Below, one piece after another: positions 10,054-43,528 of a stretch of DNA of 64,000 nucleotides. The DNA lies in NCBI GenBank assembly GCA_947498355.1, contig CANMKA010000019.1:10222-74221 (forward strand), given 5' to 3'. Within the stretch, counting starts at the first letter, position 1. Every line of letters starts with the position of its first letter. The stretch is from an uncultured Paraglaciecola sp. GTDB taxonomy: Bacteria; Pseudomonadota; Gammaproteobacteria; Enterobacterales; Alteromonadaceae. The translations under genes were made by a program, and so were the position numbers. The notes under the pieces are model-generated. The model was not told the origin of the DNA. It made no database searches and was given only the letters and a program-made list of their open reading frames with translations.

Positions 10054-13000
10054 ATGCAAAAAATTAATAGTAGATTTACATTTTTGATACGTCCTATTAA
10101 CAGACAAGTCAGTAAGACGTTAATAGTGCTAAATTTATTATTCTACTGTTTAGTGTTATCCGAAGTAAAAGCAGCGGAAGCGGATCAGGTTAATGCAGAG
10201 TATGATTTTAATATTCCACAACAACCACTTAGTGTATCGCTAAATAAATTGTCTGATATTGGTAAAATATCATTCCTATTTCCTTATGACCTTGTTGTAA
10301 ACAAAACTGGTCGTTCAGTGAGAGGCCGCTTTACGGTTCAACAAGCACTCGATGTGCTTTTGGCCCAAAGTAACCTTAAAGGTGAACTGTCAGACAAACA
10401 GGCTTTTATTATTAAGCCCATGTCTGCGACTGATAACAAAAACAACTTAGGTAACACCAATATGACAACTAAGAAAACCCTTCTTGCTTCTATGATGGGC
10501 TTAATGTTTGCGTCTTCGGCAAATGCTCAAGCTCCCGAGTCAGCTAAAACAACAGAACAAGAACCCGAGCGCATTATTGTAACGGGTGTATTCAAATCAT
10601 CGAGTGAAGATGGCTCCGCAGTAGCCGTGTCGAGCATAGGCGAAGAGACCTTAAGACGCACGATTGCCGTGAGTACCGCAGATGTGTTGAAGGACATTCC
10701 TGGCGTGTTCGTCAATACCGCCCTAGGTGAAGTGCGCAACATTGTGTATTCACGAGGCATATCAGCGAACTCTCTTGATGGCAACAACGGCTACTTTTAT
10801 GTGTCTATGCAAGAAGATGGTTTGCCAGTGCAAAACGCCATCATGACAAATTTTGGTCCAGATTTGTTTTTTCGGGTCGATTTGATGACCAAACGTGTCG
10901 AAGCCGTAAGAGGCGGTGCTTCTGCGATTACCGGAGCTAACGCCCCCGGCGGCATATTTAACTATTTAACAAAAACCGGGGCATCTGATCCAGGTACCAT
11001 CATCAGTGCCAGACTAGGCAGCGAAGGGGGCGAATTTGGCAACCCTTATTACCGTACCGATTTCTATCATGGCAGGCAGATTAACGATAACTTGTCATTC
11101 GCAGTAGGTGGATTTTATCGAGATGGCACGGGCCCTAGAGATCCTGGCTACTCAACCAACCGAGGCGGCCAAATACGCGCTAACGTCTTGTACGAATATG
11201 ACAATGGCTCGATACAATTCAATTATAAAAACCTAAATGATCACAATATTTGGGATGAGTTTTTACCTGTTGAGGGTTTACGCAATCCACGTCCTTTGGG
11301 CCAGTTCGATTTTAATAGTTCGGTCAATCCCTCGCGTGTTCCTCATACATTTAGAGCCCTCGATAGCCGTCAATATTTGCCCGGCACCTTAACCGACACA
11401 GATCACTGGGATCCAAAGAATCTGATCCACAACACATCTCAAACTTACAGCGTAAGTATTCAACATGATCTGAACGACTCTTGGTCTATTGAGAATAAGT
11501 TCAAACGCTCAGAAAACAATTCGGACTGGAACACAGGTGCTGCAATCTTTGCCATGGGCATTGATGTAGCAGGAATATACGGGCCAGCTCCTTTTGGTAA
11601 TGGCATACTGGCTGTAGGCGTAACCGGTGAAAACGGCTTTGAACCATACGACGGAACCCTTTCGTTTAGCGACAATGCGGGCAACCAATTGGCCCAAGTC
11701 AGTGCGTTAAATGGTGAATACACTGTGTTATCTTCTAGCCTACCCGACGACCCAGCCCTTCCCAATGCAATACTGGTTCAAACCGCTTTTGCACCAGAAA
11801 CGGGTGCCGATGAATTTATTAACCAATTCACCCTAAGTAAAGAATTGGACGATATGGCATTTTATTTTGGTAATTTCTACTCCGAGTCCAAGCTTTATTG
11901 GCGCAGCGGTGAAGGCGGTACAGGGTTAAGCCAATTCACCCCTGAACGCGAAATGCTAAATATCACCATAGAACGACCCGATGGTACGGTACAACAAGTG
12001 ACATCTCCTGACGGCTTTGCTGGAGAAGGCCGTATTGGTGCATTTCAAAACTTTGCGAGCCTTGCAGAACAAGAGCAAATTTCATTCTTCTTCGGACATA
12101 CATGGGATATTTCAGAGCAATGGAACCTCAACTGGGGGCTGCGCAGCGAGCGGATCACAGTTGAAGGCAGTAACCAAGTTGCCAGCCAGTTTACCGACGA
12201 AACAGGTGGCATAGACGGCGATCCAAACACCTTATACGACAATACCATTCAGTCACTCGGCTTTCCGGTTCGATACAAACGTACCTTTAACTCTGTCGGC
12301 TTCTCTGGCGCCTTGACCTACAGATGGAATGACAACCAATCGACCTACTTCCGGTATTCAGACAGTGAAAAAGCCCCCAGTGTTGCAGCATTTGTCGACC
12401 CGGGTGCAGGCGTAAACGACGGCTTATTTGTGCCTCAGTCAGTGCTGCAAATTGAAGTTGGCCATACTATTTCGGCGAAAGACTATCGCCTTGTATTAAC
12501 GCCATTTTATACAGAACTAACCGACATAGGCGGCTTTGGTTCACCGGTACAATTTACCGATACCGATGGCACCACTTATCTGCCCCCTTCTCTGTTATCA
12601 GCAATTGAAACCTTCGGGATTGAAATCGAAGGACACTACAATCTAACAGACAAATTCAAACTTAATCTAAGCACTACGCTACAAGACTCCACCAGCACAG
12701 ATAATGCCGCTTGGCGTTCAACTGAGCCCGGACGAGCCGACGATTTCATTGAATTCTTTGAAGACGGAGATGCTGCTAATACCGCCAAATTCCAAGGTGC
12801 GTTGACGGGAACCTACACAGAGCAACAATGGAGCGCATTTGCCACCATTCGTCATTTAGGCGATCGTCCAGCCAATGCCAACAACACCTTCGATTTACAA
12901 GGTTTTACCACTATTGACATAGGTGCGACTTACTTCGTCAATGACAACGTAAGGCTCAACCTCAACGTTAATAATCTGACTAATGAACACGGTGTAATGA

Positions 13001-27712: not shown

Positions 27713-30574
27713 TTAATGCGTTAAGGTGATTACACCCGAGATTTGATAGTCTCCAGGGCCTAAAAGTGTGTTTGAGCTTAACTCGGCATTAGACTCGCCA
27801 ATTGAGCTCACGACTAACTTTTCAACTTTAGGCAACAACAATTCTGCTTGGGCGTTTTTAGGCACCCTTAAAGTCATAGATAAATTATTTTTATCGATGC
27901 GCCAGCTCACGTGTATATCACCTTGAGGTGTGGGTATGGCACCTGACAAGTTATTCAATTTACGAGTAAATTGAGGCGAGACAACAAACTGCTTGAAGCC
28001 TGGCACCCTAGATTTTATGCCCAACATACCCGTGTAAAACCACTCAGCTACGGCACCATAGGCATAGTGGTTAAGAGAGTTCATGTTGGCTTTGTTGTAA
28101 CCGTCTTGCAGTGAATAAGAATCCCAGCGCTCCCATGTGGTGGTGGCACCGTTATTGATAGAGTAAAACCAAGAGGGATAGGTCTCTTTAAGTAAAATAT
28201 CATACATTAATTCGCTATGGCCAAAGCGTTGCAATACCTTGTGCAGCATTGGAGTACCTAAGAAACCCGTGCGCAAATGGCGATCACTTCCCTCGAGTAA
28301 GGCTAGTAGTTTATTAACCGCCAACTGTTGCTCCTGCTCATCAAACAAGTTAAATGTTAGAGGTAACAAGTAACTTGTTTGAGTAGGAATAAGCGTAATC
28401 TCACTGGTTTTCGGGCGCTTTAAACGCTGACCTCTGTCTCGACGAATAGTTTTAATGGCCGTGCTAACAAGGTTTAAGTTTTCGTCAAAAAAGTAGTGCC
28501 TAAACTTGTCCTTAATACGAATGAATAAACGCTCGTATTGCTCTGCGTCGCGCTCAAAACCCAATAAACGCGCAGTTTTTGCTGCGATATCGACAGAATG
28601 AGCGTAATACGCTGTGGCAATTAAATCGGGATGAGTATCGCCTTTGGCGCGCCCGTTTTCAGAATAAGGCTGCAACCAATCACCATAGGTGCCCATATTA
28701 GAAATATAATCAAAACTGTGGAACTCAGTATAGTTAAGCCACTGTTGCATCATATTATAGTTTTCGGCTAGTACGTTTAGGTCCCCCGTGTACTGATACA
28801 ACTGCCAAGGGACTATAGTTGCCGCGTCTCCCCAAGCAGCAGCTGGACCATCGGTCAAAAACGGTCTAAATGGCACAAACTTGGGGATCATGCCATCTAT
28901 ACTTTGTTCTTCTCTTACGCTTTCTAACCAAGCTGCCCAAAATCTATAGACATCGGCTTTATACATAGAGGTGCTCACAAATACTTGCGCGTCACCTGTC
29001 CACCCTAGCCTTTCATCTCGTTGCGGACAATCCGTAGGAATATCTAAAAAGTTGCCTCTTAATCCCCAAGAGACGTTGTCGGATAGCTTATTTAGCTTAG
29101 GATGAGAACTTGAGAAATTGTCGTATACCGCAAAGTCTGAATGCACTACCTTGCCCTTTATCCAATCTAAACTGGGTTCGTGAGCTGAGTCGAAGCCACT
29201 GACTTCTACAAAACGGTATCCATGAAAGGTAAATGTTGGTTGATAGGTGATCATCCCGTCTTTACTCGGTATGTACAAATCAATATTCTTTGCCGAGCGC
29301 AAGTTTTTCACATAAAAATCCCCCATACTCAGAGCCTCAGAAAACCGTAGTTGAATGGTTTGGCCTTGCTTTGCCGGAATGGTAATTTCGGGTACGCCCA
29401 CCATGTTTTGCCCCATATCGTAAATCACTGCCCCATTTTTATTGCTGACAATACTGACGGCTGGGATGGTCATAGTCACTTTAGGCGCAGTATGACGTTT
29501 TGGTTTTAGCTGCACTTGGCTGTCAATAGGTTCGGCGTATGCTCCTTGCCAATTTTGGGGGGTAAAGTCGGGGGTGTTCCAGCCGGGCATTTCGTAATTT
29601 GCATCGTACTTTTCGCCATCATAGTTGCTCGCCGCACGAATTGGCCCCTGCTGAGTGGTTTGCCAAGATTCATCGGTGACTATAGTTTGTGTACTGCCAT
29701 CGGCAAATTGCACCTCTAGTTGAGCAAGTAATTGAATAGGTAGGGTACGTTGGGTAGGCGACGGATGGAATATTCGGCCACTGTACCAACCTTTAGCGAG
29801 TGATGCGCCTAAGGTATTCTGTCCTGTGTTAACTAAGTCAGTCACATCATAGGTAAGGGTTTCAATCCTTTTATGGTAAGGGGTCCAACCTGGAGTCATC
29901 AAATCATCACTAATTGCTTGCCCATTTATATACGGCTTAAAAACACCTTTTGAGGTGATATACAAGCGGGCTTTTACTGCTGTTTGGGCTACTTCAAAGG
30001 TTTTACGTAAATATTGAGGCCGATTGTAGGTATTCTCTACATTCGAAAAGTGGCTGTGTTTTGGGTCGGTTTCATCTTGGGTAGGGTGTCCAATCCATTT
30101 TGCCCGCCAATCATTGTTACTCAGTAATCCAAGTTCAATTGATTGAGTTTTACTCCAATTTGAGCTTTGGTCTTGACCGTCCCAGGTTTTAACGCGCCAG
30201 TATACTTGTTGTCTAGAGCTTAACTGAGAGCCTTGATATTGGATCCAAGCGTTATCGTTAGAGACAACCTTAGCACTATCCCAAAGTATGCTTGGCTCAG
30301 AAAAATTAGGATCTTCGGCCACCTGCAACTGGTAGCTAGTTTGTATTTGTTGTGCCGAGTCTGCAGGCAATTTCCAACTAAAACGAGGGGAAGATTCGTA
30401 GTAGCCTAAGGGTTCAACAAACCCCTCCCCCACTTTCAATTCTACTGGACCAGATATAACGCTGTTGATCTCGCTTTGAGACGCTGCTTTCGACTCAACA
30501 GAATCGCATGACACCATTATCCCCATTGCTAAGCCAATACTTAACGACTTAAAAACTGAATTAAAAAACTCCAT
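27713..30574 (-). CDS. Alpha-L-rhamnosidase (GH78), probable lipoprotein
   Basis: PRFSWKL and YWRVKTWD N-terminal signatures. A bacterial rhamnosidase N-domain and a six-hairpin catalytic region (DCPQRDERLGWTGD). Likely start is MEFFNSVF... at 30574, with a signal ending MVSC. Confidence 0.85.
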   Translation of the reverse strand: MEFFNSVFKSLSIGLAMGIMVSCDSVESKAASQSEINSVISGPVELKVGEGFVEPLGYYESSPRFSWKLPADSAQQIQTSYQLQVAEDPNFSEPSILWDSAKVVSNDNAWIQYQGSQLSSRQQVYWRVKTWDGQDQSSNWSKTQSIELGLLSNNDWRAKWIGHPTQDETDPKHSHFSNVENTYNRPQYLRKTFEVAQTAVKARLYITSKGVFKPYINGQAISDDLMTPGWTPYHKRIETLTYDVTDLVNTGQNTLGASLAKGWYSGRIFHPSPTQRTLPIQLLAQLEVQFADGSTQTIVTDESWQTTQQGPIRAASNYDGEKYDANYEMPGWNTPDFTPQNWQGAYAEPIDSQVQLKPKRHTAPKVTMTIPAVSIVSNKNGAVIYDMGQNMVGVPEITIPAKQGQTIQLRFSEALSMGDFYVKNLRSAKNIDLYIPSKDGMITYQPTFTFHGYRFVEVSGFDSAHEPSLDWIKGKVVHSDFAVYDNFSSSHPKLNKLSDNVSWGLRGNFLDIPTDCPQRDERLGWTGDAQVFVSTSMYKADVYRFWAAWLESVREEQSIDGMIPKFVPFRPFLTDGPAAAWGDAATIVPWQLYQYTGDLNVLAENYNMMQQWLNYTEFHSFDYISNMGTYGDWLQPYSENGRAKGDTHPDLIATAYYAHSVDIAAKTARLLGFERDAEQYERLFIRIKDKFRHYFFDENLNLVSTAIKTIRRDRGQRLKRPKTSEITLIPTQTSYLLPLTFNLFDEQEQQLAVNKLLALLEGSDRHLRTGFLGTPMLHKVLQRFGHSELMYDILLKETYPSWFYSINNGATTTWERWDSYSLQDGYNKANMNSLNHYAYGAVAEWFYTGMLGIKSRVPGFKQFVVSPQFTRKLNNLSGAIPTPQGDIHVSWRIDKNNLSMTLRVPKNAQAELLLPKVEKLVVSSIGESNAELSSNTLLGPGDYQISGVITLTH

Positions 30575-30744
30575 ACAAATTTTTGCCCTAATAGAAATCA
30601 AATCTCTTTCTTGAAAAGACAGGATGGCGCTAAATTGATACCTTAATTGCGTAATTAATTGAAACGTTACCCCAGCCAAGGTGAATTTTTGCTTCCCCCC
30701 AGCGAGGGGGACACCTCATAATGCCTTTCCCTACTCGGTATAAC

Positions 30745-30785
30745 AAAAAGCCCCTCTCAAACGTTAGTCTGAGAGGGGCTTTTTA
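30745..30785 (-). terminator. Rho-independent (bidirectional) terminator
   Basis: AAAAAGCCCCTCTCA-aacgttagtc-TGAGAGGGGCTTTTT, directly downstream of the 30796 stop. Confidence 0.8.
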
Positions 30786-30795
30786 TTTTCTTAGT

Positions 30796-32301
30796 CTATT
30801 TTTTCTTTTTATTCTTTTTGTATTCGGCATGGGCCTTTTTATATTGTCTTAGCTGCTCTTTGGTCTGTTTCGTTAAGATATTTGCAGACGCTTTATCTCG
30901 CTGAATAGGGCCATTGTCTCCAACTAAGTAAACACGTCGCCAGTCGTTGCCACGTAAACGCTCTGCCACTATCATTCGAGCGTCAGGGTGTGCATCTGTA
31001 ATGATTGAGCTTATCGCCCAAGAAGCATTAGGCCGACGTAACAGCTCTTTGCCTTTAGTAAAGGTTTTGCCGCCATCTTTACTGTTGTAATACCCTAATA
31101 TACCTTGGCCTTTCTCTCTATAGCCAAGGATAAAGCTCACGTCATTTGCAGACGTCACCATAAAATCACCTCGCGTATCCGTGCCGTCGATACGAGATTG
31201 AGTATAAACTGGTTCGCCACCTACCCACTCTTTGCCGGTCCAACGGTAATGGCTTGTTTGTTTAGGGCCGCCAGTTTTTTTGCCCAAATCTTTACCTATA
31301 TTTGTACCAATATGAGGATGGCCATGCTCATCTAAACGCACGGAGCCATTAAATGTCCAGTAGCCTGGACCACCTGTTCGAGCAACTAAGGTTTGTTCAT
31401 CAGCGACTTCACGAGTAAGGGGGATGGCTAATTTTTCACCTTTGACGTTAGTCCAAGTATTGTCTTTAGTGTTAAAGACCATGTAGTAGGCGTCGTGACG
31501 CTCAGTGGTGTGCCCACGTCCATTAACGCCTGCATTGCCGTTCCAGCAAACATGATAATCGTAAGACATCACTATATCGTCGTTCTCTCCCTTAGTAACA
31601 TACAAGTACCAACTATCGGTAGCGAGTATATCAGTGCGCTTCTTTCGCTTAAGAATAGAAACGGGATCTGCGAATGTACGACCGTGATCCGTCGATTTTT
31701 GGTATACCCAATCACTGCGGTGGGCACCATGGCGATAAAATACATAAATATCGCCATTATCCATCTTCACTGCTTGGTTATATGTGCCAAAAGGGGTAAT
31801 GGTATCTAGCTCTTGCCATTCTGTTATATCGTAAGGGCGCTTAGACACCACGTGTTTATTTGCCGCATAGTGGGTATTACCCTTAACGTTTTTACCGTGG
31901 CGCGCATCGCCACCGTGACCACCGAAAAATACGTGAATATGACCAAGATTATCAATCATCATGGTAGGCTTGCCATGGTTATCAATATTTTTTGGTTGTG
32001 TTAAATCTTTACCCAATTCACTGTCACCCGCTTTGAACGGCCCTTGCCAAGTTTTGGTTTTGTGATTGTAGGACGCAACATAAGGGTCTTCTAATGGGCC
32101 TTGGTAAGACACGTACGTGATGCCGTTTTTGTGGATCCCTGCTGGCTGTTGAACAACAGCTAAGGCATTCCCCAACGCATTATCTGCAAAGTGATCGACT
32201 TTAGCATCGGCTGCGGTTGCGCTTCCCACTCCACCTAGCGCTACCGAAGTCGACAACAGAGTAATAAACGATAAGTGAGTAAAGAGTTTTTTAATAATCA
32301 T
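30796..32301 (-). CDS. Secreted BNR_4-type beta-propeller protein, possible PL24/PL25-like polysaccharide (ulvan) lyase
   Basis: 501 aa with a signal peptide. Repeated blade-like segments (HVFFGGHG, IYVFYRHG, YDYHVCWNG, ERHDAYYMVF). Lys-rich tail KKNKKKK. The family link is from memory and needs an HMM check. Confidence 0.5.
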   Translation of the reverse strand: MIIKKLFTHLSFITLLSTSVALGGVGSATAADAKVDHFADNALGNALAVVQQPAGIHKNGITYVSYQGPLEDPYVASYNHKTKTWQGPFKAGDSELGKDLTQPKNIDNHGKPTMMIDNLGHIHVFFGGHGGDARHGKNVKGNTHYAANKHVVSKRPYDITEWQELDTITPFGTYNQAVKMDNGDIYVFYRHGAHRSDWVYQKSTDHGRTFADPVSILKRKKRTDILATDSWYLYVTKGENDDIVMSYDYHVCWNGNAGVNGRGHTTERHDAYYMVFNTKDNTWTNVKGEKLAIPLTREVADEQTLVARTGGPGYWTFNGSVRLDEHGHPHIGTNIGKDLGKKTGGPKQTSHYRWTGKEWVGGEPVYTQSRIDGTDTRGDFMVTSANDVSFILGYREKGQGILGYYNSKDGGKTFTKGKELLRRPNASWAISSIITDAHPDARMIVAERLRGNDWRRVYLVGDNGPIQRDKASANILTKQTKEQLRQYKKAHAEYKKNKKKK

Positions 32302-32736: not shown

Positions 32737-33654
32737 ATGTTGTTACTTAGAAGTACATTAATTACGTTAGTTTGTTTATTTCTGGGCTCGCCTGCACATG
32801 GAAAAGACGATACAGTAGCGGTAATTTACCCTCGCGTTTCAGAGCCTTATAATCAAGTATTTTCGGCCATAATCGATGGTATAAAAAGTGAATTTGATAA
32901 CCGAGCGGTTACTCTAAAAACGTTAGAGAAATCCGATGACGACCAATCGTTTTCTACTTGGTTAAACCACGAAAACCCCGAAATGATCATTGCCTTGGGT
33001 AAACGTGGTTACCAGTATGCGAAAAATTTAACCAAACCCAAAGCGATAGTAATAGGGGCTTTACCCATAAAGCCCAATGGTATTTCTGGCGTTAGCCTTT
33101 TAGGTGACCCTAAAGTACTGTTTGAGTCTCTACAATTACTGGCTCCGCAAATTAAGCAAGTCAACGTTGTTTATAGTAAAAACAGTGAGTGGCTGATTGA
33201 TTTAGCCGAAGGTCACAGCCAAAACATGGGGTTGGTATTTAAAAAGATAAAGGTAGACAATATCAAAGACGCTGCGTCTGAATATGAAAAGCTGCTAAAT
33301 AACCTAGACGCAAAAACCGATGCCATTTGGCTCCCTCTTGATCCCCTTACGGCTAACGAGCAAGTTATTCTGCCAAATTTGCTAGAAAAATCTTGGCAAC
33401 AAAATTTTGTTTTATTTTCAAGCAAACCCGCCCATACCAAGAGGGGCGCCTTGTTTTCTATGTTCCCTAATCATTTCGAGTTAGGCCAACAATTGGCCGC
33501 TATGGTAGAAGGCATTCATTCTACACGCACTAAAGCCGGCGTCGTGCCCCTTAAAAGCAAGCATTTAGCCGTGAACTTACGGACTGCAAACCACTTAGGC
33601 TTTAAATATAACAATCAACAGAAAAAATCTTTTTATCTCACCTTTCCAAATTAG
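32737..33654 (+). CDS. Periplasmic ABC-substrate-binding-like protein (PF04392-like), no cognate permease or ATPase nearby
   Basis: 305 aa with a signal peptide (LFLGSPAHG). VAVIYPRVSEPYNQVFSAIIDGIKSEF pattern. Followed 17 nt later by a histidine kinase. Confidence 0.65.
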   Translation: MLLLRSTLITLVCLFLGSPAHGKDDTVAVIYPRVSEPYNQVFSAIIDGIKSEFDNRAVTLKTLEKSDDDQSFSTWLNHENPEMIIALGKRGYQYAKNLTKPKAIVIGALPIKPNGISGVSLLGDPKVLFESLQLLAPQIKQVNVVYSKNSEWLIDLAEGHSQNMGLVFKKIKVDNIKDAASEYEKLLNNLDAKTDAIWLPLDPLTANEQVILPNLLEKSWQQNFVLFSSKPAHTKRGALFSMFPNHFELGQQLAAMVEGIHSTRTKAGVVPLKSKHLAVNLRTANHLGFKYNNQQKKSFYLTFPN

Positions 33655-33671
33655 CCCAACCACTTATCCCG

Positions 33672-35225
33672 ATGAAAACCTTCAAACGTAAAGTCATTCA
33701 TACCAACGCACTAAGCATTAGGCATCTACTGTTACGCTCTTTACTGGTAAGCATAGTAATATTTCTATGTTTATTTAGCCTTGCCATTATTTGGCTGACC
33801 CAAAAAGGGGCCAGCACATTGATTGTTAGCAATGCCCAAGAAACAGTTCAAGTACTCGCAGAACAAGGCCGTTTAGCACTTCTAACTGACAGTCCAGAAA
33901 ATGCCAGTAATGCCTTAGAACAAGTCAATGCGTTTCCAGATGTGGTAGGTGCAGGGCTTATCTCCTCTAATGGCGAAATACTTATTTGGCAAGGCTCTGA
34001 AATAGGTGAAGTCCATTTCAAACAGCAAAATTGGCAAAATTATCAGGGTCTTGACCGCGTCAATGAAACGGATGACTACTGGCACATTAGCGCCAAAGTC
34101 ATCATCGCCTCTTCTTTCAATGACGACGAACAGCTTGATCTGTTCGAAACTTCAGAAGAACACTTAGGGTTTGCCGTCGTCTCATTTAGTAAAAATAGCC
34201 TGCAAAATATCAGCCGAGATTTATTCGTCACTATCTCGATTGCCAGCCTTTTTGTCATGATTGGCTTGCCTCTCGTTGTAATTTTGGTCACTCGCCGTTT
34301 ACTTTACCCTTTGCAATCTCTATCTGATGTTATGAGTAATAACCACCTCAAAGGGGAGCACCAAATTGCTGAGGTGCAAGGTGCGAAGGAAGTTCAACTT
34401 ATGGCATTGTCTTTTAATGCTCTGATGAAAACATTGGATAAACAAGATGAAAAGCTACGAAATCATAGAGATAGGCTTGAAGCTAAAGTCCAACTTAGAA
34501 CCCGAGAGCTCGTAACAGCAAGAGACGCAGCCCTAACCTCAAATCGGTATAAATCAGAGTTCTTAGCTAATGTGACTCATGAGCTGCGCTCACCTATCCA
34601 ATCGATCATGGGTTATGTTGAATTAGCCAAAGAAGAAGCTGAGAACGAAGGGCTTATCGATATATCGACAGACCTTGATAAAGTGACGCGAAATGCCGAA
34701 CGTTTGTATAATTTAATAAATAGCTTACTTGATCTGTCAAAAATTGAGGCAGGCCGTATGGAGCTAAAAAAACAAAAAGTTAACTTATCTTCACTTATCG
34801 TTAGTTTAGAAGAAACTACCGCTCCCCTTGCCAAGCCAAACAAAAATACGTTTACTATTGTTAATTCAGTTCAAGATATTGAGTTAACTATCGATACAGA
34901 AAAAACCTTACAAATCTTAATTAACTTAGTTGGAAATGCCCTTAAATTTACGGAAAACGGAAACGTAGAGCTTAATGTTTCTGCCAAAGATACAACTCTT
35001 ACCTTTAAAGTTATTGATACCGGAGTAGGTATCCCTGACGATCAACTCGATAGTATTTTTGAACAATTTCAGCAAGTTGATGGCAGTGAAGCAAGGAAGT
35101 TTGGCGGAACAGGATTAGGTTTAGCGATATCAAAACAATTATGTGACATGATGCAAGGACAAATATCTGTCACCAGTGAAGTGGGAAAAGGCTCTTGTTT
35201 TTGCCTAACACTTCCTTTGAATTAG
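33672..35225 (+). CDS. Membrane sensor histidine kinase (periplasmic domain-HAMP-HisKA-HATPase), no receiver
   Basis: H-box HELRSPIQSIMGY, N-box LVGNALKFT, G1 DTGVGI, G2 GGTGLGLAI. Two TM segments flank a ~150-aa periplasmic region. Confidence 0.9.
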   Translation: MKTFKRKVIHTNALSIRHLLLRSLLVSIVIFLCLFSLAIIWLTQKGASTLIVSNAQETVQVLAEQGRLALLTDSPENASNALEQVNAFPDVVGAGLISSNGEILIWQGSEIGEVHFKQQNWQNYQGLDRVNETDDYWHISAKVIIASSFNDDEQLDLFETSEEHLGFAVVSFSKNSLQNISRDLFVTISIASLFVMIGLPLVVILVTRRLLYPLQSLSDVMSNNHLKGEHQIAEVQGAKEVQLMALSFNALMKTLDKQDEKLRNHRDRLEAKVQLRTRELVTARDAALTSNRYKSEFLANVTHELRSPIQSIMGYVELAKEEAENEGLIDISTDLDKVTRNAERLYNLINSLLDLSKIEAGRMELKKQKVNLSSLIVSLEETTAPLAKPNKNTFTIVNSVQDIELTIDTEKTLQILINLVGNALKFTENGNVELNVSAKDTTLTFKVIDTGVGIPDDQLDSIFEQFQQVDGSEARKFGGTGLGLAISKQLCDMMQGQISVTSEVGKGSCFCLTLPLN

Positions 35226-35293: not shown

Positions 35294-37423
35294 TTGAGTG
35301 CCCGAATGAAAAAAAATAAAAAATACATCGCCATCCCACTTTTACTTGCAACTAGTACATGTCTAGCATTTACAGATGGCGAATTTGACGACTCAGATGA
35401 ATTTGGTGATTTTTACTCAGACGCAGAATTCATAAGTATTGCTACGGGTACTAAAAAGCAATTGAGTCGTGCACCTTCTGTGGCAACAGTTATCACTGCA
35501 CAGCAAATAAAGTCAATTGGTGCAAACAATATTCATCAAGTGATTGAAACGGTAACAGGTATTCATGTCTACCCTTCTAACTTCAACAGAATGAACCCTT
35601 CATATTCAATTAGAGGCCTGCATACCAGCCAGAACCCTCAGGTACTTGTTTTAGTTAACGGCAACAGAGTGCATTCGAATTGGACTGGCGCCAAATGGGA
35701 TTTATTTGATACTGGGATTGAGATTGTAGAGCGAATTGAAATTATTAAAGGTCCCGGCTCAGCAGTACATGGCGCAGATGCATTTTCAGGCGTAATCAAC
35801 ATCATAACTAAAGGCTTTGATGGAACTAAAAGTCAAGACATAGGGGCAAGAGTCGGCTCATTTGGCACAAGAAGTATTTGGGGTAATCTCTCCACGAATA
35901 TAGACCAAACCCAATTATATTTTAATGGTCAATTAAAAAAAACTGATGGTGACAACAACAGATTAGTCGTTCAGGATGCGTTGTACGCAATGGGACTTAG
36001 TGCTATTTCAAATGCCCCAGCTCCATTGGATACTCGACTCGAAACGATTGATTTACACTTTGGGTTTAAAGCCCAATCATTGTATGGCGACCTATGGTAT
36101 TTAAGAAACGACGGGGGCAATGGAGCCGGTGTTGCGCAAGTATTATCAAATAACAACGACTATACAGATTCAAGATCTGTTACTGCAAAAATAGGATTTA
36201 AAGCCAATATAAATGACAAGGTTACAATAGACGCTTTCGCGTCTTATCAATCACTAGAGCAAGACAGCGTGTTTACAATATTTCCTGCGGGTATGACGCT
36301 ACCCAGAGCTTTTGATTCAGAAACTGGCGTTCCTACAGAATTTACTGTATTCCCTGATGGCGTAATTGGCCAGCCTATTCTGATCGACGACAACTATAAT
36401 ATAGAAGTTGTCACGCACTACTCGGGTTTTAAAAATCACAAGCTTAGAACCAGTTTTGGTTATCTTAGAAATGAAATGGAAGCTCAAGAGTTTAAGAACT
36501 TCGGACCACTTGCACAAACTTTTCTTGAAGACTTTCGAGATGGAACCCTAACCGATGTAACGGGCACGGATTTTGTATTCTCACCCAACAAAAATAGAGA
36601 CATATATTATGCGTCTTTTCAAGATGAGTGGGGTATTGCAAAAGATTGGGAGTTAACTGCTGGAGTCAGGTACGATAAATATTCAGACTTCGGAAGTACA
36701 ATTAATCCAAGAGCTGCGTTAGTGTGGCAAGCTCGCCATGATTTAACAGTAAAAACTTTGTATGGCGAGGCATTTAGAGCTCCGTCTATAGGTGAATTAT
36801 TTGCCATTAATAACCCCGTCCTTTTGGGTAATCCAAATTTAGACCCTGAAAAAATTAATACTTTCGAAGTCGCCTTTGATTATCGACCAAGTTTTGACTG
36901 GCACGTGTTGTTTAATGTCTTCAGTTATAAAGCTAAAAGCCTAATTATTTACACCGCTCAACCTGATGGTTCGAGCCAAGCAAATAATGCGGCGAAACAA
37001 AACGGTAAAGGCTTTGAGTTTGAGGCGGATTGGCAAGTAAACGGCCAGCTTGACCTAGCTATAGGTATAGCGATGCAAGACGCAACGAATGAAACGACTG
37101 GCCATGATATATCCGACGCACCGCAAAAGATGTTTGACGTAGCTCTTAATTGGGATGTTGCACGTGATTTTAAACTACATGTTAAGACCCATCTCATTAA
37201 AGATAGGGTAAGGCTTGCCAACGACCCAAGACCGTCAATAGACGACTACAGCTGGACCAATGCCACAGCAAATTACCTCTTGAACAATCAAGTAAGTCTG
37301 TCTCTATCCATACGAAACTTGTTTAACAAAGCCGCTTACGAACCCAGTGATGGGCAAATTCCAAATGACTATCCTTTGCAGGAGCGTGGCTACTGGCTAT
37401 CTGCAACTTATCGGTTTGAATAA
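35294..37423 (+). CDS. TonB-dependent outer-membrane receptor
   Basis: Signal peptide, plug (ISIATGTKKQLSRAPSVATVITAQQIKSIGA...ETVTGIHV), beta-barrel. Likely start is the MKKNKKY ATG at ~35306. Confidence 0.9.
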   Translation: MSARMKKNKKYIAIPLLLATSTCLAFTDGEFDDSDEFGDFYSDAEFISIATGTKKQLSRAPSVATVITAQQIKSIGANNIHQVIETVTGIHVYPSNFNRMNPSYSIRGLHTSQNPQVLVLVNGNRVHSNWTGAKWDLFDTGIEIVERIEIIKGPGSAVHGADAFSGVINIITKGFDGTKSQDIGARVGSFGTRSIWGNLSTNIDQTQLYFNGQLKKTDGDNNRLVVQDALYAMGLSAISNAPAPLDTRLETIDLHFGFKAQSLYGDLWYLRNDGGNGAGVAQVLSNNNDYTDSRSVTAKIGFKANINDKVTIDAFASYQSLEQDSVFTIFPAGMTLPRAFDSETGVPTEFTVFPDGVIGQPILIDDNYNIEVVTHYSGFKNHKLRTSFGYLRNEMEAQEFKNFGPLAQTFLEDFRDGTLTDVTGTDFVFSPNKNRDIYYASFQDEWGIAKDWELTAGVRYDKYSDFGSTINPRAALVWQARHDLTVKTLYGEAFRAPSIGELFAINNPVLLGNPNLDPEKINTFEVAFDYRPSFDWHVLFNVFSYKAKSLIIYTAQPDGSSQANNAAKQNGKGFEFEADWQVNGQLDLAIGIAMQDATNETTGHDISDAPQKMFDVALNWDVARDFKLHVKTHLIKDRVRLANDPRPSIDDYSWTNATANYLLNNQVSLSLSIRNLFNKAAYEPSDGQIPNDYPLQERGYWLSATYRFE

Positions 37424-37436
37424 CCCCACTAAAACC

Positions 37437-38243
37437 ATGAATAAAAATAAACAATCAGAACAAACCAAAGGGGATGCGTTTACTCAACGGGTCCCTACAA
37501 ATATTTGGAAAGAGCAAGGCAGTCCATCCAATCCATATATTGCAACAAAAGCGTATTGCTATGGTTACGACTTCGATGAGGTGATTGATCAACTCAGTTA
37601 CGTAGATTCCTTGTACTTGATGTTAACGGGAAACCTTCCCACATCAGAGCAATCAAGTTTGCTCGAACTATGCTTAAAATTATTTATGACACCGGGCCCA
37701 AGGCACCCTGCTACGCGAGCTGCTATGAATGCTGGAATCGGCCGCACCCACGTTACGCACATTTTACCTATTTCACTTAGCGTGCTATCAGCTGATTATT
37801 TAGGGAGCACCGAAGTAGGCAATGCTATGAAGTTTATCCAACAGCATAAAAATAAAGATGCGAAAACGTTTATCGAATCAGGTGAAATAGCAATCGATCA
37901 TAGTTCCCCGAATCCTATTCCCGGTTTTGGTACAATCTACAACGGCCTTGACCAAAGAACACTCAAATTTGTTAGTAAAGTACAATCACTAAATTGTGAG
38001 TTTAGCCATTTTAACTGGAGCCAATCGTTTGTCTTGGGTTTAGTTAAGTACAGGCTATCTTGGCTCCCTACTGGGTTGGCTGCCGCACTATTTCTTGATT
38101 TGCAGCTAGATTACCGAACCGGTACCTGCCTCTTTCAAATGATGCAGAGCCCAGGCTTAATTGCCCACGGTGTAGAAAAAGCAAACAAACCATTAACCGA
38201 TATGCCTTTTGTAAACGAAGATAATTATGTCATACAAAAATAA
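37437..38243 (+). CDS. Citrate-synthase-fold protein 1 (citryl-CoA-lyase-like size), catalytic residues apparently substituted
   Basis: YLMLTGNLPTSEQ matches the CS helix motif. GFGT replaces GFGH, PTGL replaces PNVD, and the C-terminal GLIAHGVEK resembles GWxAHxxE. The ATG at 37437 is 14 nt after the receptor stop. Confidence 0.55.
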   Translation: MNKNKQSEQTKGDAFTQRVPTNIWKEQGSPSNPYIATKAYCYGYDFDEVIDQLSYVDSLYLMLTGNLPTSEQSSLLELCLKLFMTPGPRHPATRAAMNAGIGRTHVTHILPISLSVLSADYLGSTEVGNAMKFIQQHKNKDAKTFIESGEIAIDHSSPNPIPGFGTIYNGLDQRTLKFVSKVQSLNCEFSHFNWSQSFVLGLVKYRLSWLPTGLAAALFLDLQLDYRTGTCLFQMMQSPGLIAHGVEKANKPLTDMPFVNEDNYVIQK

Positions 38244-39072
38244 AGACAACGTAGAACAATGGGATAGACTGCGTAATAAAATAGAGTCCAAGAAAGGAGG
38301 TTGGGTCATAGGTGATGCGGTGTATAACCATGGTTACCGCATGATGCAAGATTTAGTCGGCTCCTCTAGCTATTTCCAAGTATTGGTATTGAACATCACC
38401 GGAAGGCTTCCTTCCAAAAACATTACAAAGTGGTTAGAAGCTAGCTTTATTTGTTTAAGCTGGCCTGACCCTCGAATATGGTGTAACCAAATAGGTGCAT
38501 TGGCGGGAACAATCCAAGCATCTTGCCCATCCGCTGTTTCAGGAGGAATGTTAGCCGCTGACTCTAGAATGTATGGAGCGGGCACCATGCGAGCTTGCAT
38601 GGAGTTTATTGTTAAAGCAGGGCAACAAGCAAACAAAGGAAAAACAATCTCTGAAATAGTTGATAATGAATTAGCGTTAAAAGCCAAACAATTGAAATCT
38701 AAGCCCGTTATATCAGGATATGCACGGCCTATAGCCTCTGGTGATGAACGTGTTACCGCAATGCAACGAGTAGGTAGAGATCTAGGTTTCAGTGTTGGAC
38801 ATCATGAAAATATCGCCATACAAATTCATAATGAATTACATGAAAAGTATGACGACGGCATTAACGTTGCTGGATATTGTGCAGCTCTATTATCTGATTT
38901 TGGTTATACCCCACTAGAGAGTGAACGGATTTATGCGACATGGGTAAACTCTGGTATTCATGCTTGTTACGCTGAGGCAGCAGATAAACCGGAGCTTACT
39001 TTTCTACCCATGAGGTGCGATGACATTGATTACCATGGGCCTACAATCCGTAAACTCCCTAAATCACAGTAG
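38227..39072 (+). CDS. Citrate-synthase-fold protein 2, paralogue-like, catalytic residues apparently substituted
   Basis: 17-nt overlap with protein 1. ITGRLPSKN, GYARPI in place of GFGHRV, INVAGY in place of PNVDFY, GIHACYAE in place of GWxAHxxE. Confidence 0.55.
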   Translation: MSYKNKDNVEQWDRLRNKIESKKGGWVIGDAVYNHGYRMMQDLVGSSSYFQVLVLNITGRLPSKNITKWLEASFICLSWPDPRIWCNQIGALAGTIQASCPSAVSGGMLAADSRMYGAGTMRACMEFIVKAGQQANKGKTISEIVDNELALKAKQLKSKPVISGYARPIASGDERVTAMQRVGRDLGFSVGHHENIAIQIHNELHEKYDDGINVAGYCAALLSDFGYTPLESERIYATWVNSGIHACYAEAADKPELTFLPMRCDDIDYHGPTIRKLPKSQ

Positions 39073-39080
39073 GCTATACC

Positions 39081-40892
39081 CTAGCCTCCTGGCGTTGCAG
39101 ATTCACCATTCACCGCTATGCCTTTAATACGGTCTCCCATAGGCGGTACTTCTTCCTTATCAATTCTAAAATCAATCAAGGTGGGGCCTTTTTTCGCAAA
39201 TAAACGTTTGTAATTAACTTTCGCTAAATCTTGCATAGAGTTAACGACTATTCCCTCTACCCCCATGGCATCTGCCATTTGTGCAAAGTTGACTTGGCCT
39301 AGCTCAAAACCGGTTTCAGCAGCCCCGCCTAAGCGTTGACCATGCATTACCATACCCAAAACACTATCATTCAATATCATGTAAATAATCGGTAATTCGA
39401 GCTGCTTAGCAACAGTAAGCTCTTGGGCGCTCATCAAATAACTTCCATCACCAGTAATACAAATATGCGGCTCTTTGCCCTTTGATGCAGATGCAGAACC
39501 AATTACTGCACCAATAGCCCAAGCCATTGCACCTAAGCCCATAGCTAAATGAAACTTACCGTCATGCTCAGCTCGTTGATAATATTGAATACTCCACGCC
39601 CATGCGTTACCTGCATCCACAAAGACTCGAGTATCAATAGGCATAGCAAGGCTCAAATGGCTAAATAAGCGCTGAGGTTTAATTAATTGCTGGTCTTGAT
39701 CTGACTTACATTTATGTTCATCGTACAAACTAGTGCGGCAGCCATTAACGTTGACGCCGACTGGCTGCGGCGCACTCCCCCATTCTTTATTCCAATATCG
39801 CTGAGCACGATGCATTTTTTCATTGAGTATCCGAAAAATAGTGGGCAAATGTCCACAGACCTGAAGCCTTGCCATATGTGAACGCGTAAAATGCTCTAAC
39901 CTTGAATCCACATGAATGAGTTTTTCGTTGATGAGTTTGCTAGACCAGCCCCCCGTCCCCAATTCTCCTAAAGCTGCACCCACGGCAATCACAAGATCGA
40001 TTTCATTATTAGTGTCTTTTAGCAGTGCTTTAGCACTTTCATGCCCACCAAAACCAAACACACCTCGATAGAGAGGGTGCGTTTCATCCACCCACCTCTT
40101 ACCCATAGGGCCGGACACAAACTGGGCATTGATTTGCTCGGCAAAACGCATTATCTCGACGGACGCATCACGACAACCATTGCCTACGTAGAGCACAATA
40201 TTATCGACTCGCTGCAACTCCAATACCATTTGGTCAATAGCCCCTTGGTCAATCAAGGTATGCCTACTGCTTGATACCTTCTCAATAGATTGAGCTGGCA
40301 CCTTAGCTAAGGTCCGTAACACATCTGACGGGATACTAATATGTACAGGGCCTGCAGGTTCGGTTTGAGCCGTCATCAAGGCCGACACTAACTTATTTTC
40401 TAGTTGCTCAAAATGACTGACCATAGTGCTGTGTTTAGTGCAATGGTCGAACATTGCAACTGTATTGATTGAAGCGCAAGACGAATCCTGAAGGGCACGT
40501 TTGCCAAATTTAGGCAAAGGCGTTTGGGCGGTAATGACCAACATTGGCACATTATCGGCGTAAGCTCCTGCTACCCCAGTGATTAGATTGGTTGCACCTG
40601 GGCCAGTGGTCGAGCAACATACTCCCACTTTACCCGTCTCTCTGGCATAGCCATCGGCCATAAAGGCTGCACCAGACTCGTGACGCGCAACCACAGATTT
40701 AATACCACCCTGCTCTTCTCGCTTGTGCATAGCGTTATATAAGGGCTCAATTGCCCCGCCAGGTACACCAAAAATATACTCAATGCCTAATTGTTCCAAA
40801 TAATTGACAATGACATCGGCATATAAATCGGGTTGTTTTTGACTTTCTGTCTTCATGTTAATATCTGCTACAGACATCACTCTACCATCCAC
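39081..40892 (-). CDS. Thiamine-pyrophosphate-dependent enzyme (acetolactate synthase large-subunit-like)
   Basis: N-terminal TPP-Pyr domain (GIEYIFGVPGGAIEPLYNA...ARHESGAAFMADGYAR...TTGPGATNL). C-terminal TPP-binding motif (ITGDGSYLMSAQEL...LNDSVLGMV). Convergent with 38227..39072, only 8 nt apart. Confidence 0.85.
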   Translation of the reverse strand: MDGRVMSVADINMKTESQKQPDLYADVIVNYLEQLGIEYIFGVPGGAIEPLYNAMHKREEQGGIKSVVARHESGAAFMADGYARETGKVGVCCSTTGPGATNLITGVAGAYADNVPMLVITAQTPLPKFGKRALQDSSCASINTVAMFDHCTKHSTMVSHFEQLENKLVSALMTAQTEPAGPVHISIPSDVLRTLAKVPAQSIEKVSSSRHTLIDQGAIDQMVLELQRVDNIVLYVGNGCRDASVEIMRFAEQINAQFVSGPMGKRWVDETHPLYRGVFGFGGHESAKALLKDTNNEIDLVIAVGAALGELGTGGWSSKLINEKLIHVDSRLEHFTRSHMARLQVCGHLPTIFRILNEKMHRAQRYWNKEWGSAPQPVGVNVNGCRTSLYDEHKCKSDQDQQLIKPQRLFSHLSLAMPIDTRVFVDAGNAWAWSIQYYQRAEHDGKFHLAMGLGAMAWAIGAVIGSASASKGKEPHICITGDGSYLMSAQELTVAKQLELPIIYMILNDSVLGMVMHGQRLGGAAETGFELGQVNFAQMADAMGVEGIVVNSMQDLAKVNYKRLFAKKGPTLIDFRIDKEEVPPMGDRIKGIAVNGESATPGG

Positions 40893-41050: not shown

Positions 41051-43528
41051 CTAACGACTAGCCAGTTCTGTTACCGGCATCGGGCGACTAATATGATAGC
41101 CTTGCAAGTAATCCACACCTAATTGGCGAAGTTTAAGCAAAGTCTCTTCGTCTTCGACGAACTCCGCCACTGTGGTTTTATTCAAAGATTTAGCAATATC
41201 ACAAATAGCTTTAACTATTGCCAAATCAATCGAATTAGTCAGCATATCTTTGACAAATGAACCATCAATTTTTACGCAATTGGCTGGCAAGTCTTTTAAG
41301 TAACTAAAGGTACTAAAGCCCGTACCAAAGTCATCGATTGAAAATTCGCACCCTAGTTCCATAAGTTGATTTATCATTTTTTGCGTGGCATTGAGGTTAC
41401 TCATACTCGCACTTTCGGTCACTTCAAATATGATCTGTTCAGGGTTCACTTGGTACTGTTCGAGTTTTTGCTGAATAATCGGCATAAGCCTCTCATCGCC
41501 AAAGGCCTGGGCCGACAAGTTAATTGCAACCTTAGTGAGAATTGAATTTTGGCTAATCATGAAAATGGCTTTCGAGATCACCTGATGATCTAACAGTGTC
41601 ATGTCTTCGGCTCTTTCGAGGGCTGGAATAAATTCCCCAGGCATCACCAGTTTACCGTCAATTTGCAGCCTCACTAAAGCCTCGTAATATGCTATTTGAT
41701 TGCTAGAAGAGTCGATAACAGGCTGAAAATGTAACACCAATTGGTCATCAAAAATCGCCTCTTGCAACGTTCTTACCCAATTCACCGATGCTTGAAAATC
41801 TCCGCTTTCTCGGTCGTCTGGGGTATATACATGAACTAAATTTCGGCCTCGTTTCTTGGCTACGTATAAGGATATATCAGCTTGCTGCAGATACGTTTCT
41901 GGTTGAGTCGCAGAGCCGTTTATTTCGGATAAGCCAACACTCCCACTGATTTGAAAAACCGCTTCACCAAATTGATAATGGCCTTGATGCAATATATCGC
42001 AAACATTTTGGGCAATACGCACAGACGTTTCTTTCGGGGTATGGGGCAGCAATAAAGCAAACTCATCGCCACCTATCCGACAGATTATATCGTCGTCACG
42101 CTTAATACCATTAAGATTAGCTGCGACTTCTTTTAGTACGACATCGCCTTGATGATGCCCTTGAGTGTCATTAATAATTTTAAAGCGGTCTAAATCTAAA
42201 TACAGCAAGCTATGTACATGCTTGTGATCTAATGCCGAGTTAGCCAACTCAATGAGTTTTTCATCAAAATAATGCCGATTAAAAAGTCCTGTCAGGGTGT
42301 CGTGAGAGGCCAGATAATTTAACTCTAACTGAGCTTGCTTACGCTCGTTAATATTATCTATGGTTGCGGTTACCCCTACTACTCTGTCATTTAGGTTAAT
42401 GTCATCTAAAATCGCTTCGACCCAAATTAACTGACCTTGCTTATGCTTGATTTGAAATTCAATCCCTTGGGTAGCTGTTTGCTGGCGCATCACCAAATCA
42501 ATATTGTCGGTAAGCAATGTTGCATTTTGAGATCTCGAGCCCTCAATAAAATTGGTTAAACACTTACCTTGACTCTCTGCCTCTGAGTATCCCGTTAATT
42601 CTGTCCAAGCTTGATTAGCAAACAAGATGCGACCATTCGGATCGAGTTCCATAATCACAGTAGACAGATGTTCAAGTAGCCGATTGTGGGTTTCGTATAA
42701 TTGTCTGAATTTTTCTTTACTGCTTTCTATGGTTTGTACTTTCTCAGCAAACTGGGCATTACTGATTAAAAAGTTTTCTCTATGGGCAGCAATAGAGATA
42801 ACTTTTCGCAACTGTTCGGCCCTAAAAGGCTTAGAAATAAAATCAACCGCGCCTTGGCTCATTAGGTTACCCGCAAGATCCGTATCTCCGTGTGCCGTCA
42901 TGATAACCACTGCCTGTTTTGGATTTACTGCAATAATTTGCTCTAATACTTGAGCACCGCTTATTTCTGGGAGCTGAACATCCAGCAACACAATATCAAA
43001 TAGCCCTTTTTGATACATATCAACGGCTTGTTGGCCATCTGTCGCTAGTTGAATCTGATAATGCTTAGACAAAATTCGCTGAATGAGCTCAGCAATATCA
43101 GGCTCATCTTCAACGATCAACAAAGACAACATTCCCCTGCTAGTCTCTCTATTATGTACCGCATTCAACACTGTATTAGCGAGATGGTCTAGTTGATTTT
43201 GTGGCAGTACCTTGTCAATATCGAAAGCCGATGCAGTGGTATCGGCTAAGTGTTCACAATGAGTATCAGCAATTAAAATGAAGGGAGTATCGCTAGAGCA
43301 CTTGAATAAATTCGCACGTATCATACGTGCAAGTCGCCAACCGTCTAATTGGTCTATGTCATCGTCAGACACTATTACATCTAGCTCAACATCCTTTAAA
43401 ATAGTAAGAGCTTGTTGACTATCGCTTGCCTTGAATAGGGTGACATCTGTATTTGCTAGCAATTTTTCAACTTTTACAAACCTAGACGGCTCTAAGGTGA
43501 TGACTAAGACTGATATACTTGACGACAA
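41051..43528 (-). CDS. REC-REC-PAS-GGDEF-EAL c-di-GMP turnover response regulator
   Basis: The second receiver is canonical (LLIVEDEPD...IVLLDVQLPEISG). PAS, GGDEF (RIGGDEFALLL), EAL (YYEALVRL, DDFGTGFS, KIDGSF). TTG start. Confidence 0.9.
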   Translation of the reverse strand: MSSSISVLVITLEPSRFVKVEKLLANTDVTLFKASDSQQALTILKDVELDVIVSDDDIDQLDGWRLARMIRANLFKCSSDTPFILIADTHCEHLADTTASAFDIDKVLPQNQLDHLANTVLNAVHNRETSRGMLSLLIVEDEPDIAELIQRILSKHYQIQLATDGQQAVDMYQKGLFDIVLLDVQLPEISGAQVLEQIIAVNPKQAVVIMTAHGDTDLAGNLMSQGAVDFISKPFRAEQLRKVISIAAHRENFLISNAQFAEKVQTIESSKEKFRQLYETHNRLLEHLSTVIMELDPNGRILFANQAWTELTGYSEAESQGKCLTNFIEGSRSQNATLLTDNIDLVMRQQTATQGIEFQIKHKQGQLIWVEAILDDINLNDRVVGVTATIDNINERKQAQLELNYLASHDTLTGLFNRHYFDEKLIELANSALDHKHVHSLLYLDLDRFKIINDTQGHHQGDVVLKEVAANLNGIKRDDDIICRIGGDEFALLLPHTPKETSVRIAQNVCDILHQGHYQFGEAVFQISGSVGLSEINGSATQPETYLQQADISLYVAKKRGRNLVHVYTPDDRESGDFQASVNWVRTLQEAIFDDQLVLHFQPVIDSSSNQIAYYEALVRLQIDGKLVMPGEFIPALERAEDMTLLDHQVISKAIFMISQNSILTKVAINLSAQAFGDERLMPIIQQKLEQYQVNPEQIIFEVTESASMSNLNATQKMINQLMELGCEFSIDDFGTGFSTFSYLKDLPANCVKIDGSFVKDMLTNSIDLAIVKAICDIAKSLNKTTVAEFVEDEETLLKLRQLGVDYLQGYHISRPMPVTELASR

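Follow-up and report, generated by a model that had tools for sequence, protein, structure and literature searches.

Results

Two overlapping genes behind a TonB-dependent receptor

The DNA analysed here, 64,000 nucleotides from an uncultured Paraglaciecola sp. (positions 10,222 to 74,221 of the forward strand of contig CANMKA010000019.1, assembly GCA_947498355.1), is referred to below as the window, and our subject is a pair of overlapping genes within it, here called A and B, whose products are predicted to share the fold of citryl-CoA lyase (CCL) and citrate synthase without the catalytic triad of those enzymes. They close a run of five close-packed genes on the plus strand which encode, in order, a periplasmic solute-binding protein of family PF04392 (ABC_sub_bind; 32737–33654; 44.8 bits in Pfam) with a Sec signal peptide (MLLLRSTLITLVCLFLGSPAHG), a membrane histidine kinase without a receiver domain (33672–35225; Pfam HisKA and HATPase_c), a TonB-dependent outer-membrane receptor (35294–37423; Pfam Plug and TonB_dep_Rec_b-barrel), subunit A (37437–38243; 268 residues) and subunit B (38227–39072; 281 residues). 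Converging on B from the minus strand are the genes for an acetolactate-synthase-like thiamine diphosphate (ThDP) enzyme (39081–40892; Pfam TPP_enzyme_N, TPP_enzyme_M and TPP_enzyme_C) and, upstream of it on the same strand, a response regulator assigned by Pfam the architecture REC-REC-PAS-GGDEF-EAL, with its GGDEF and EAL motifs intact (41051–43528).

A first-pass annotation, made from the sequence without database searches, had described A and B as two open reading frames (ORFs) of ~270–280 residues that overlap by 17 nt, the first starting 14 nt past the receptor stop codon, and the coordinates agree. The N-termini of homologues favour the ATG at 37437, which gives the 268-residue protein, as the start of A. 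Two other in-frame starts, a GTG at 37347 and an ATG at 37365, both lie within the 3' end of the receptor gene, and a 292-residue version of A (P0003) is present in a public collection.

A and B adopt the fold of citryl-CoA lyase

AlphaFold2 models of A and B, built on 33-sequence alignments, have pLDDT (predicted local distance difference test) values of 83.3 and 84.7, respectively. In Foldseek searches the top match of both is the citryl-CoA lyase of Hydrogenobacter thermophilus (PDB 6HXP), with template-modelling (TM) scores of 0.70–0.76 (target TM 0.74 and 0.76), followed by the CCL modules of ATP-citrate lyases and then by citrate and methylcitrate synthases, which are matched at a probability of 1.00 and a query TM of ~0.55–0.61, as expected if the citrate-synthase-type helical fold is present. 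On the strength of these models the CCL fold is confirmed for both proteins. The first-pass annotation had pointed to this fold from landmarks shared with citrate synthases and citryl-CoA lyases, and these are indeed present (YLMLTGNLPTSEQ, and GLIAHGVE / GIHACYAE).

By sequence the relationship is far more distant. The only solved structure with significant similarity in phmmer searches is again 6HXP (E = 4e-16 for A, 1.6e-8 for B). The Pfam citrate synthase model PF00285 (Citrate_synt) reaches 26 bits on A, over residues 40–122 only and below its cutoff of 27, and a Pfam search of B returned no match. Among the PRK06224 citryl-CoA lyase models of NCBIfam the best scores are 70 bits for A and 66 for B, and scores of 40–70 bits overall compare with cutoffs of 193–409. 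A and B themselves are distant paralogues, aligned by hhalign with 97.9% probability at 21% identity. No curated family in Pfam or NCBIfam claims either protein, PDB sequences give weak CCL or citrate synthase similarity only, and we found no description in the literature of the A/B family or of the gene module to which it belongs; none of these searches placed the pair in a characterised family.

The catalytic triad is lost and a different conserved site takes its place

To place the active site, A and B were aligned to 6HXP with phmmer, and 33 A and 33 B sequences were aligned with MAFFT together with 6HXP and the genome's own citrate synthase; positions are given in the numbering of the pig enzyme. 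The genome has one ordinary GltA, in which LHADHE, GPAHGG, GFGHRVY..DPR, PNVD, ARTVGW and GRPRQ are all intact, and GltA and 6HXP carry all three catalytic residues in their own motifs, the first His of 6HXP being shifted by one column in the MAFFT alignment.

The equivalents of the triad His274, His320 and Asp375 are absent from all 33 A and all 33 B sequences. At the His274 position A has Leu, Ala or Gln and B has Tyr (32 sequences) or Phe (one). The His320 position is Ser, Lys, Thr, Leu or Arg in A, and in B it is Arg followed by Pro, each in 33/33 sequences. Asp375 is replaced in A by Thr (25 sequences), Pro, Ser or Ala and in B by Ala, Gly, Val, Asn or Leu. The arginines that bind oxaloacetate have fared little better: none of Arg329, Arg401 and Arg421' is kept in A, where the first is Leu or Met and the second Ser, Gly, Gln or Asn, and B keeps the Arg329 equivalent alone, in 33/33 sequences and within the motif GDER, with Val or Ile at the Arg401 position. 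The substitutions of the catalytic His and Asp that had been read by eye in the window's two proteins (GFGT / GYAR, LPTG / INVA and GPRHP / WPDPRIW) are borne out by these alignments, and they extend beyond this genome to the whole of both families.

In place of the canonical residues each family has its own hallmark motifs, invariant or nearly so and present in the window's copies. Those of A are NPGPRHPATRAAMNAG, NPGPRHPATRA, PGFG, W..TG and APGLxAHGxExxNKP; those of B are SWPDxRIWCNQ, GYARPxxxGDER, N..GY, SGxxAC and CxDIxYxG..R, with Cys86, Arg167, Asp173/Glu174/Arg175, Cys247 and Cys264 among the invariant B residues. These motifs fall on the loops that form the active site in citrate synthase. 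When the columns within three residues of six canonical positions were compared with random windows, the old active-site loops proved to be the best-conserved part of B (mean conservation 0.81 vs 0.66 for random windows, p = 0.005); for A the values were 0.70 and 0.61 (p = 0.09). Selection continues to act on the cleft, and in B most visibly, but on different residues.

A and B occur as a pair

Gene neighbourhoods were compared over 82 related loci, with neighbours counted within 10 kb of the pair; 52 of these loci have full flanks. In 81 of them the gene immediately upstream of B is A, the remaining locus being cut by a contig end, and the two ORFs overlap in 77 of those 81. The distance matrices of A and B are more closely correlated (r = 0.835) than those of any other pair of module genes: against the receptor the coefficients are 0.62 for A and 0.64 for B, and against the ThDP enzyme 0.43 and 0.58.

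Fusions were sought with a concatenated A+B query and then by reading all lengths in the representative library. At least seven independent single-chain proteins join the two in A-to-B order (P0243, P0244, P0292, P0301, P0310, P0383 and P0384), and P0244 lies in a complete module in which regulator, ThDP enzyme and fused A-B occupy one strand, facing the receptor, a short-chain dehydrogenase/reductase (SDR), the kinase and the binding protein. Such fusions are the strongest available support, indirect as it is, for a physical complex of A and B. The suggestion that the two form a heterodimer, made at first because citrate synthase is a homodimer, accordingly gains indirect support for a heteromer from adjacency, overlap, correlated distances and fusion. 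B is also found in other combinations: P0255 (523 residues) is a B-B tandem, P0349 (428 residues) joins B to a Polyketide_cyc2/SRPBCC ligand-binding domain, and P0312 (425 residues) carries after B a C-terminal domain of ~130 residues without assignment.

A ThDP enzyme is the obligate genomic partner

The ThDP enzyme, which in the window retains the catalytic Glu and the GDGS...ND ThDP motif, is encoded within 10 kb of A/B in 64/82 loci. In genomes without a linked copy an ortholog was found elsewhere in 8/8 (437–552 bits, 41–48% identity, in a comparison in which housekeeping acetolactate synthases score ~200 bits), and one of these unlinked orthologs sits between a kinase and a GGDEF protein. 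The association is equally tight in the window's own family, where 33 of 151 genomes have the ThDP ortholog: 31 genomes have both it and B, two have the ThDP enzyme only, 117 have neither, and the single genome with B only is 80% complete (odds ratio ~1800, Fisher p = 1e-28). The ThDP enzyme is thus the obligate genomic partner of A/B. Its closest relatives in the PDB are BbmA (8X3X; E ~1e-84) and CsmA (8X3Z; ~1e-77), for which our literature search found nothing on what they do, and then acetolactate synthases; 2-hydroxyacyl-CoA lyase and benzaldehyde lyase are more distant matches.

A second candidate partner is the SDR. B is fused to a classical SDR, with TGGxSGIG and YxxxK motifs, in clusters P0246, P0247 and P0248 (18, 1 and 15 member sequences); one such fusion was located in a full module, and 19 loci carry an SDR as a gene of its own. 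At a B-SDR fusion locus, L088 (4402–6759), the place of the PF04392 protein and kinase is taken by a hybrid kinase to which a DUF4154 (YfiR-like) periplasmic domain is fused, and an NMT1_2-type ABC transporter adjoins the ThDP gene.

Receptor, sensor and cyclic di-GMP genes accompany the pair

A TonB receptor of the same family lies within 10 kb of the pair in 77/82 loci (50/52 with full flanks), with a median gap of 11 nt to the pair where it is upstream. The PF04392 binding protein does so in 40/82 (30/52), and a GGDEF-EAL output protein, matched over at least half its length, in 43/82 (35/52). The link of the pair to an outer-membrane receptor and a sensor kinase, which had been remarked on as an unfamiliar context for this fold, is therefore real and conserved.

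In the window the receptor consists of a plug and a 22-strand barrel with no STN signalling extension, and its similarity to PDB entries is confined to the plug of CirA and BtuB. The kinase has two transmembrane segments flanking a periplasmic domain of ~140 residues, followed by HisKA and HATPase, and its best NCBIfam similarities, all under cutoff, are to kinases of the TorS/LuxQ type. No ABC permease or ATPase gene was found near the window's PF04392 binding protein, which is probably the ligand sensor of the kinase; the REC-REC-PAS-GGDEF-EAL regulator is presumed to be the kinase's output.

Gene order differs by lineage while the parts of the module persist. Gammaproteobacteria share the layout of the window. 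In Gallionellaceae the order is ThDP-A-B-receptor, adjoined by a PF04392 protein paired with a membrane HAMP-PAS-GGDEF-EAL protein, and in Desulfobulbaceae two binding proteins, the receptor, A, B and two unknown genes are followed by the ThDP enzyme and kinases. The two unknown ORFs of one Desulfobulbaceae locus (L018, 11011–12264), of 185 and 231 residues, have no Pfam match. One Desulfobacterales contig reads KASIII-SDR-receptor-A-B-aminotransferase-acetyltransferase, with no ThDP gene in the recovered stretch, which extends from B for ~10 kb upstream and 6 kb downstream. At three loci (L004, L005 and L065) ThDP-A-B is found with no receptor. In the closest named relative, a metagenome-assembled genome (MAG) of Aestuariibacter sp. 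(L001, 7889–10028), the receptor is called as separate genes for a 142-residue plug and a 572-residue barrel, which suggests a frameshift or assembly error.

Searches for regulatory and transport elements were largely negative. No inner-membrane importer is conserved across the 82 loci, so that periplasmic sensing fits the module better than catabolism. Rfam found no riboswitch near the receptor, either in the window or at the seven related loci scanned, the window has no Fur box at up to three mismatches, and promoter and terminator scans gave nothing above shuffled controls. A TPP riboswitch (80 bits) does occur in a Candidatus Electrothrix MAG (L015, 18566–18671), ~8 kb downstream of the module, to which it is probably unrelated. 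Just upstream of the window's module, on the minus strand (27713–32301), are a GH78 alpha-L-rhamnosidase (988 residues) and a BNR_4 propeller protein (501 residues), a rhamnose-glycan degradation cluster that is unrelated to A/B.

A small, widespread family and its sensor-only relatives

Among 90%-identity clusters we counted 584 relatives of A and 1031 of B, mostly unnamed or labelled 'citrate synthase' or 'hypothetical'. Against 1.84 billion 50%-identity representatives a profile of B matched no more than 111 proteins at E ≤ 1e-30, rising to 639 at E ≤ 1e-3, and the B family is therefore small. It is widely spread nonetheless: mean column identity is 57–58% across Gamma- and Betaproteobacteria, Desulfobacterota, Nitrospirota and Magnetococcia, and the open frames of A and B are kept at 40–73% identity over several phyla. 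Among the carriers that can be cultured are Neptuniibacter marinus, Colwellia maritima, Litorilituus sediminis and Malonomonas rubra DSM 5091. Within the window's own family B occurs in 32/151 genomes (22/59 genera), and it is missing from all four other genomes of the window's genus. Single in-frame stop codons interrupt B in two family genomes (G131 and G140) and the ThDP gene in a third (G132), and these may reflect decay of the module in some lineages or sequencing errors. The sequencing runs that hold the window locus are labelled DNA or untyped, none RNA, and come from seawater and macroalgae metagenomes and from three coded organisms.

The receptor is found more widely, with homologues in 41/151 family genomes, ten of which lack B and several of which have two to five copies. 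Most of the 19 places with receptor homologues that we inspected hold lone receptor paralogues, and three hold more. At L114 (3613–11037), in a genome without B or the ThDP ortholog, a binding protein, kinase and receptor face a GGDEF-EAL regulator, with 18 nt between the stop codons of receptor and regulator at the very place that A, B and the ThDP gene would occupy. At L103 (1–6675) two receptors adjoin a kinase and a binding protein in a 100%-complete genome that likewise has neither B nor the ThDP ortholog, and L104 is a second sensing set without enzymes in a genome that also holds a full module. Given these sensor-only loci and the receptor-less ThDP-A-B loci, A/B/ThDP and receptor/binding protein/kinase are two separable units that usually travel together. 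This arrangement fits a producer-plus-listener system, and nutrient sensing would look alike.

Discussion

Despite their fold, A and B depart from citrate synthases and citryl-CoA lyases in their residues, in their scores against family models and in their partner genes. In the reading that we tentatively favour, with a confidence somewhat short of even, the pair is a non-canonical partner of a ThDP carboligase, and together they make a small anionic compound that is detected by the receptor and the sensor. A and B would form an obligate heteromer on the CCL/citrate synthase fold from which acetyl-CoA/oxaloacetate chemistry has been removed, a different and strictly conserved polar site, richest in B (Arg, Asp, Glu, Cys and Trp), occupying the same cleft; such a heteromer would have no role in the tricarboxylic acid cycle. 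The ThDP carboligase would join units derived from 2-oxo acids, the A/B heteromer would perform or assist a further step on the anionic intermediate, and the SDR, in many lineages, would reduce a keto group, so that between them these proteins would make or finish a small anionic metabolite from 2-oxo acids. This product, or a complex of it, could be the cargo of the presumably co-transcribed TonB-dependent receptor, with the PF04392 protein and the histidine kinase reading it in the periplasm and the kinase setting cyclic di-GMP (c-di-GMP) levels through the REC-PAS-GGDEF-EAL regulator. We infer that A/B is catalytic beyond binding a ligand, that the pathway runs in the biosynthetic direction, and that its product is the ligand of both receptor and sensor.

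Several observations weigh against this proposal. A non-catalytic regulatory subunit, too, would be expected to have lost all of the canonical catalytic residues, and conservation of the old active-site loops is only marginal in A. No exporter is conserved across the 82 loci, so that secretion has to be assumed. The c-di-GMP parts are missing from many Desulfobulbales-type loci, and the sensing arm must therefore vary. Finally, the sensor-only loci would fit equally well with sensing of an environmental nutrient that A/B/ThDP consumes. The idea of a c-di-GMP effector was rejected as the principal explanation, since many A-B-receptor loci are without GGDEF or EAL genes.

A bolder form of the same idea, possible but in our view doubtful, is a circuit for an extracellular cue: the ThDP carboligase and the catalytically reinvented A/B, with new chemistry and neither the triad nor an oxaloacetate site, would make a new class of small molecule, which the receptor admits, the binding protein reads and c-di-GMP responds to, and the genomes with the sensing set alone would eavesdrop on producers.

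The nutrient alternative turns the direction of the pathway around. The TonB receptor would import an external compound, to be converted or broken down in the cytoplasm by A/B, the ThDP enzyme and the SDR, and the binding protein and kinase would report its availability. Presumed co-transcription of receptor, A and B with very short gaps is what such a system would show, the receptor family, in the manner of nutrient receptors, includes additional paralogues and is also found in genomes that have no A/B, and the ThDP superfamily does include lyases, if only among the distant matches of this enzyme. We nevertheless consider it unlikely. With no inner-membrane transporter conserved, it is hard to see how the cargo would reach enzymes in the cytoplasm, other catabolic genes are not conserved either, the structures closest to the ThDP enzyme are of the carboligase type (BbmA, CsmA and acetolactate synthases) and not lyases, and the output of the module is c-di-GMP, not a transcription factor of a catabolic operon.

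A different question is whether A/B turns anything over. It could serve the ThDP enzyme as a regulatory or scaffold subunit, standing in place of an ACT-domain small subunit and binding a metabolite without catalysis. The canonical residues are gone from both families, no small-subunit gene lies beside this acetolactate-synthase-like catalytic subunit, and A/B and the ThDP gene co-occur almost perfectly. There is also something of a precedent, one group having made the case for an allosteric role of the citrate-synthase-homology module in ATP-citrate lyase (PMC10115795). Weighing against it are the invariant Cys, Asp, Glu and Arg of the B cleft and B loops that are more conserved than the rest of the protein; the fusion partner of B is an SDR and not the ThDP enzyme, A/B is translationally coupled to the receptor more often than to the ThDP gene, and the distances of A and B track the ThDP enzyme less well than they track each other. 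We regard such a purely non-catalytic role as improbable. The first-pass annotation had offered 'pseudoenzyme or new chemistry': the loss of the triad on which both options depend stands, and the evidence on the choice between them leans to a working site in a metabolic pathway because of the conserved B loops, the B-SDR fusions and the ThDP enzyme as obligate genomic partner.

Were the product a metal chelator, A/B, the ThDP enzyme and the SDR would make a metallophore of the hydroxy-carboxylate or acyloin type whose metal complex returns through the receptor. A TonB receptor with biosynthesis genes beside it is the arrangement classically seen for siderophores, redox interfaces are home to many of the hosts (Gallionellaceae, cable bacteria, Desulfuromonadales and Magnetococcia), and receptor paralogues outnumber producers, as xenosiderophore receptors do. 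Against this stand the lack of a Fur-box-like site in the window and of a riboswitch near the receptor, the lack of a conserved periplasm-to-cytoplasm ABC importer, reductase or exporter, and the pairing of the binding protein with a kinase or GGDEF-EAL protein and not with a permease, and we hold this very unlikely. Gene decay or mis-called ORFs without function, which lost catalytic residues and sub-threshold Pfam and NCBIfam scores might have suggested, has a negligible chance of being right: decaying duplicates of a citryl-CoA lyase are ruled out by conservation across phyla, invariant motifs, confident models, synteny and fusions.

The citrate synthase/citryl-CoA lyase fold is known for one Claisen-type chemistry carried out on a His/His/Asp triad. 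A conserved heteromeric branch in which that triad has been discarded, and a different conserved site installed in the same cleft of a textbook fold, would represent either new chemistry on this fold or its first dedicated pseudoenzyme; to our knowledge no earlier one of this fold has been described. The module with which it is associated occurs in hundreds of species, among them marine heterotrophs, iron and sulfur oxidisers, cable bacteria and metal reducers, and we know of no pathway that accounts for the combination of A/B, a ThDP carboligase, a TonB receptor and a binding-protein-dependent c-di-GMP switch. If the proposed cue circuit is real, the complete module could represent a new type of system. 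Working out what it does could uncover a new small-molecule signal or chelator and show how uptake at the outer membrane feeds second-messenger control of the decision between biofilm and motility.

Comparison with known systems

The closest known proteins are the citryl-CoA lyase of H. thermophilus (6HXP) and the CCL module of ATP-citrate lyase, with which A and B share a short, all-helical fold of ~260–280 residues, the YLxLxGxLPT helix and the PGLxAH helix. The differences lie in what the fold carries and in the company it keeps. 6HXP has the catalytic His, His and Asp (in AHGG, GYGH and NVD) that A and B lack; A and B are two diverged paralogues, paired or fused; no citryl-CoA synthetase (succinyl-CoA-synthetase-like) genes lie near them, either in the window or in the related loci that were annotated; and their partners are instead a ThDP enzyme, a TonB receptor and sensors. 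With citrate and 2-methylcitrate synthases (PF00285, such as the genome's own GltA) A and B share a superfamily, a domain core and active-site loops at equivalent alignment positions, but they are without the N-terminal and inserted helices of those 380–430-residue enzymes.

For the enzymatic unit the nearest parallel is the acetohydroxy-acid synthase holoenzyme, since here too an acetolactate-synthase-like ThDP catalytic subunit is always found with small partner proteins. In this case, however, the partners have the CCL fold and are not ACT proteins, the partnership is a genomic one, and the ThDP enzyme itself is closer to BbmA and CsmA than to the biosynthetic acetolactate synthases. The sensing unit resembles TorT-TorS and LuxP-LuxQ, in which a periplasmic binding protein works with a membrane kinase: as in those systems, a transporter-less binding protein adjoins the kinase, whose core is TorS/LuxQ-like. 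It differs from both in drawing its binding protein from the PF04392 family, in having a dedicated TonB receptor and a GGDEF-EAL output, and in being encoded together with enzymes of a biosynthetic type.

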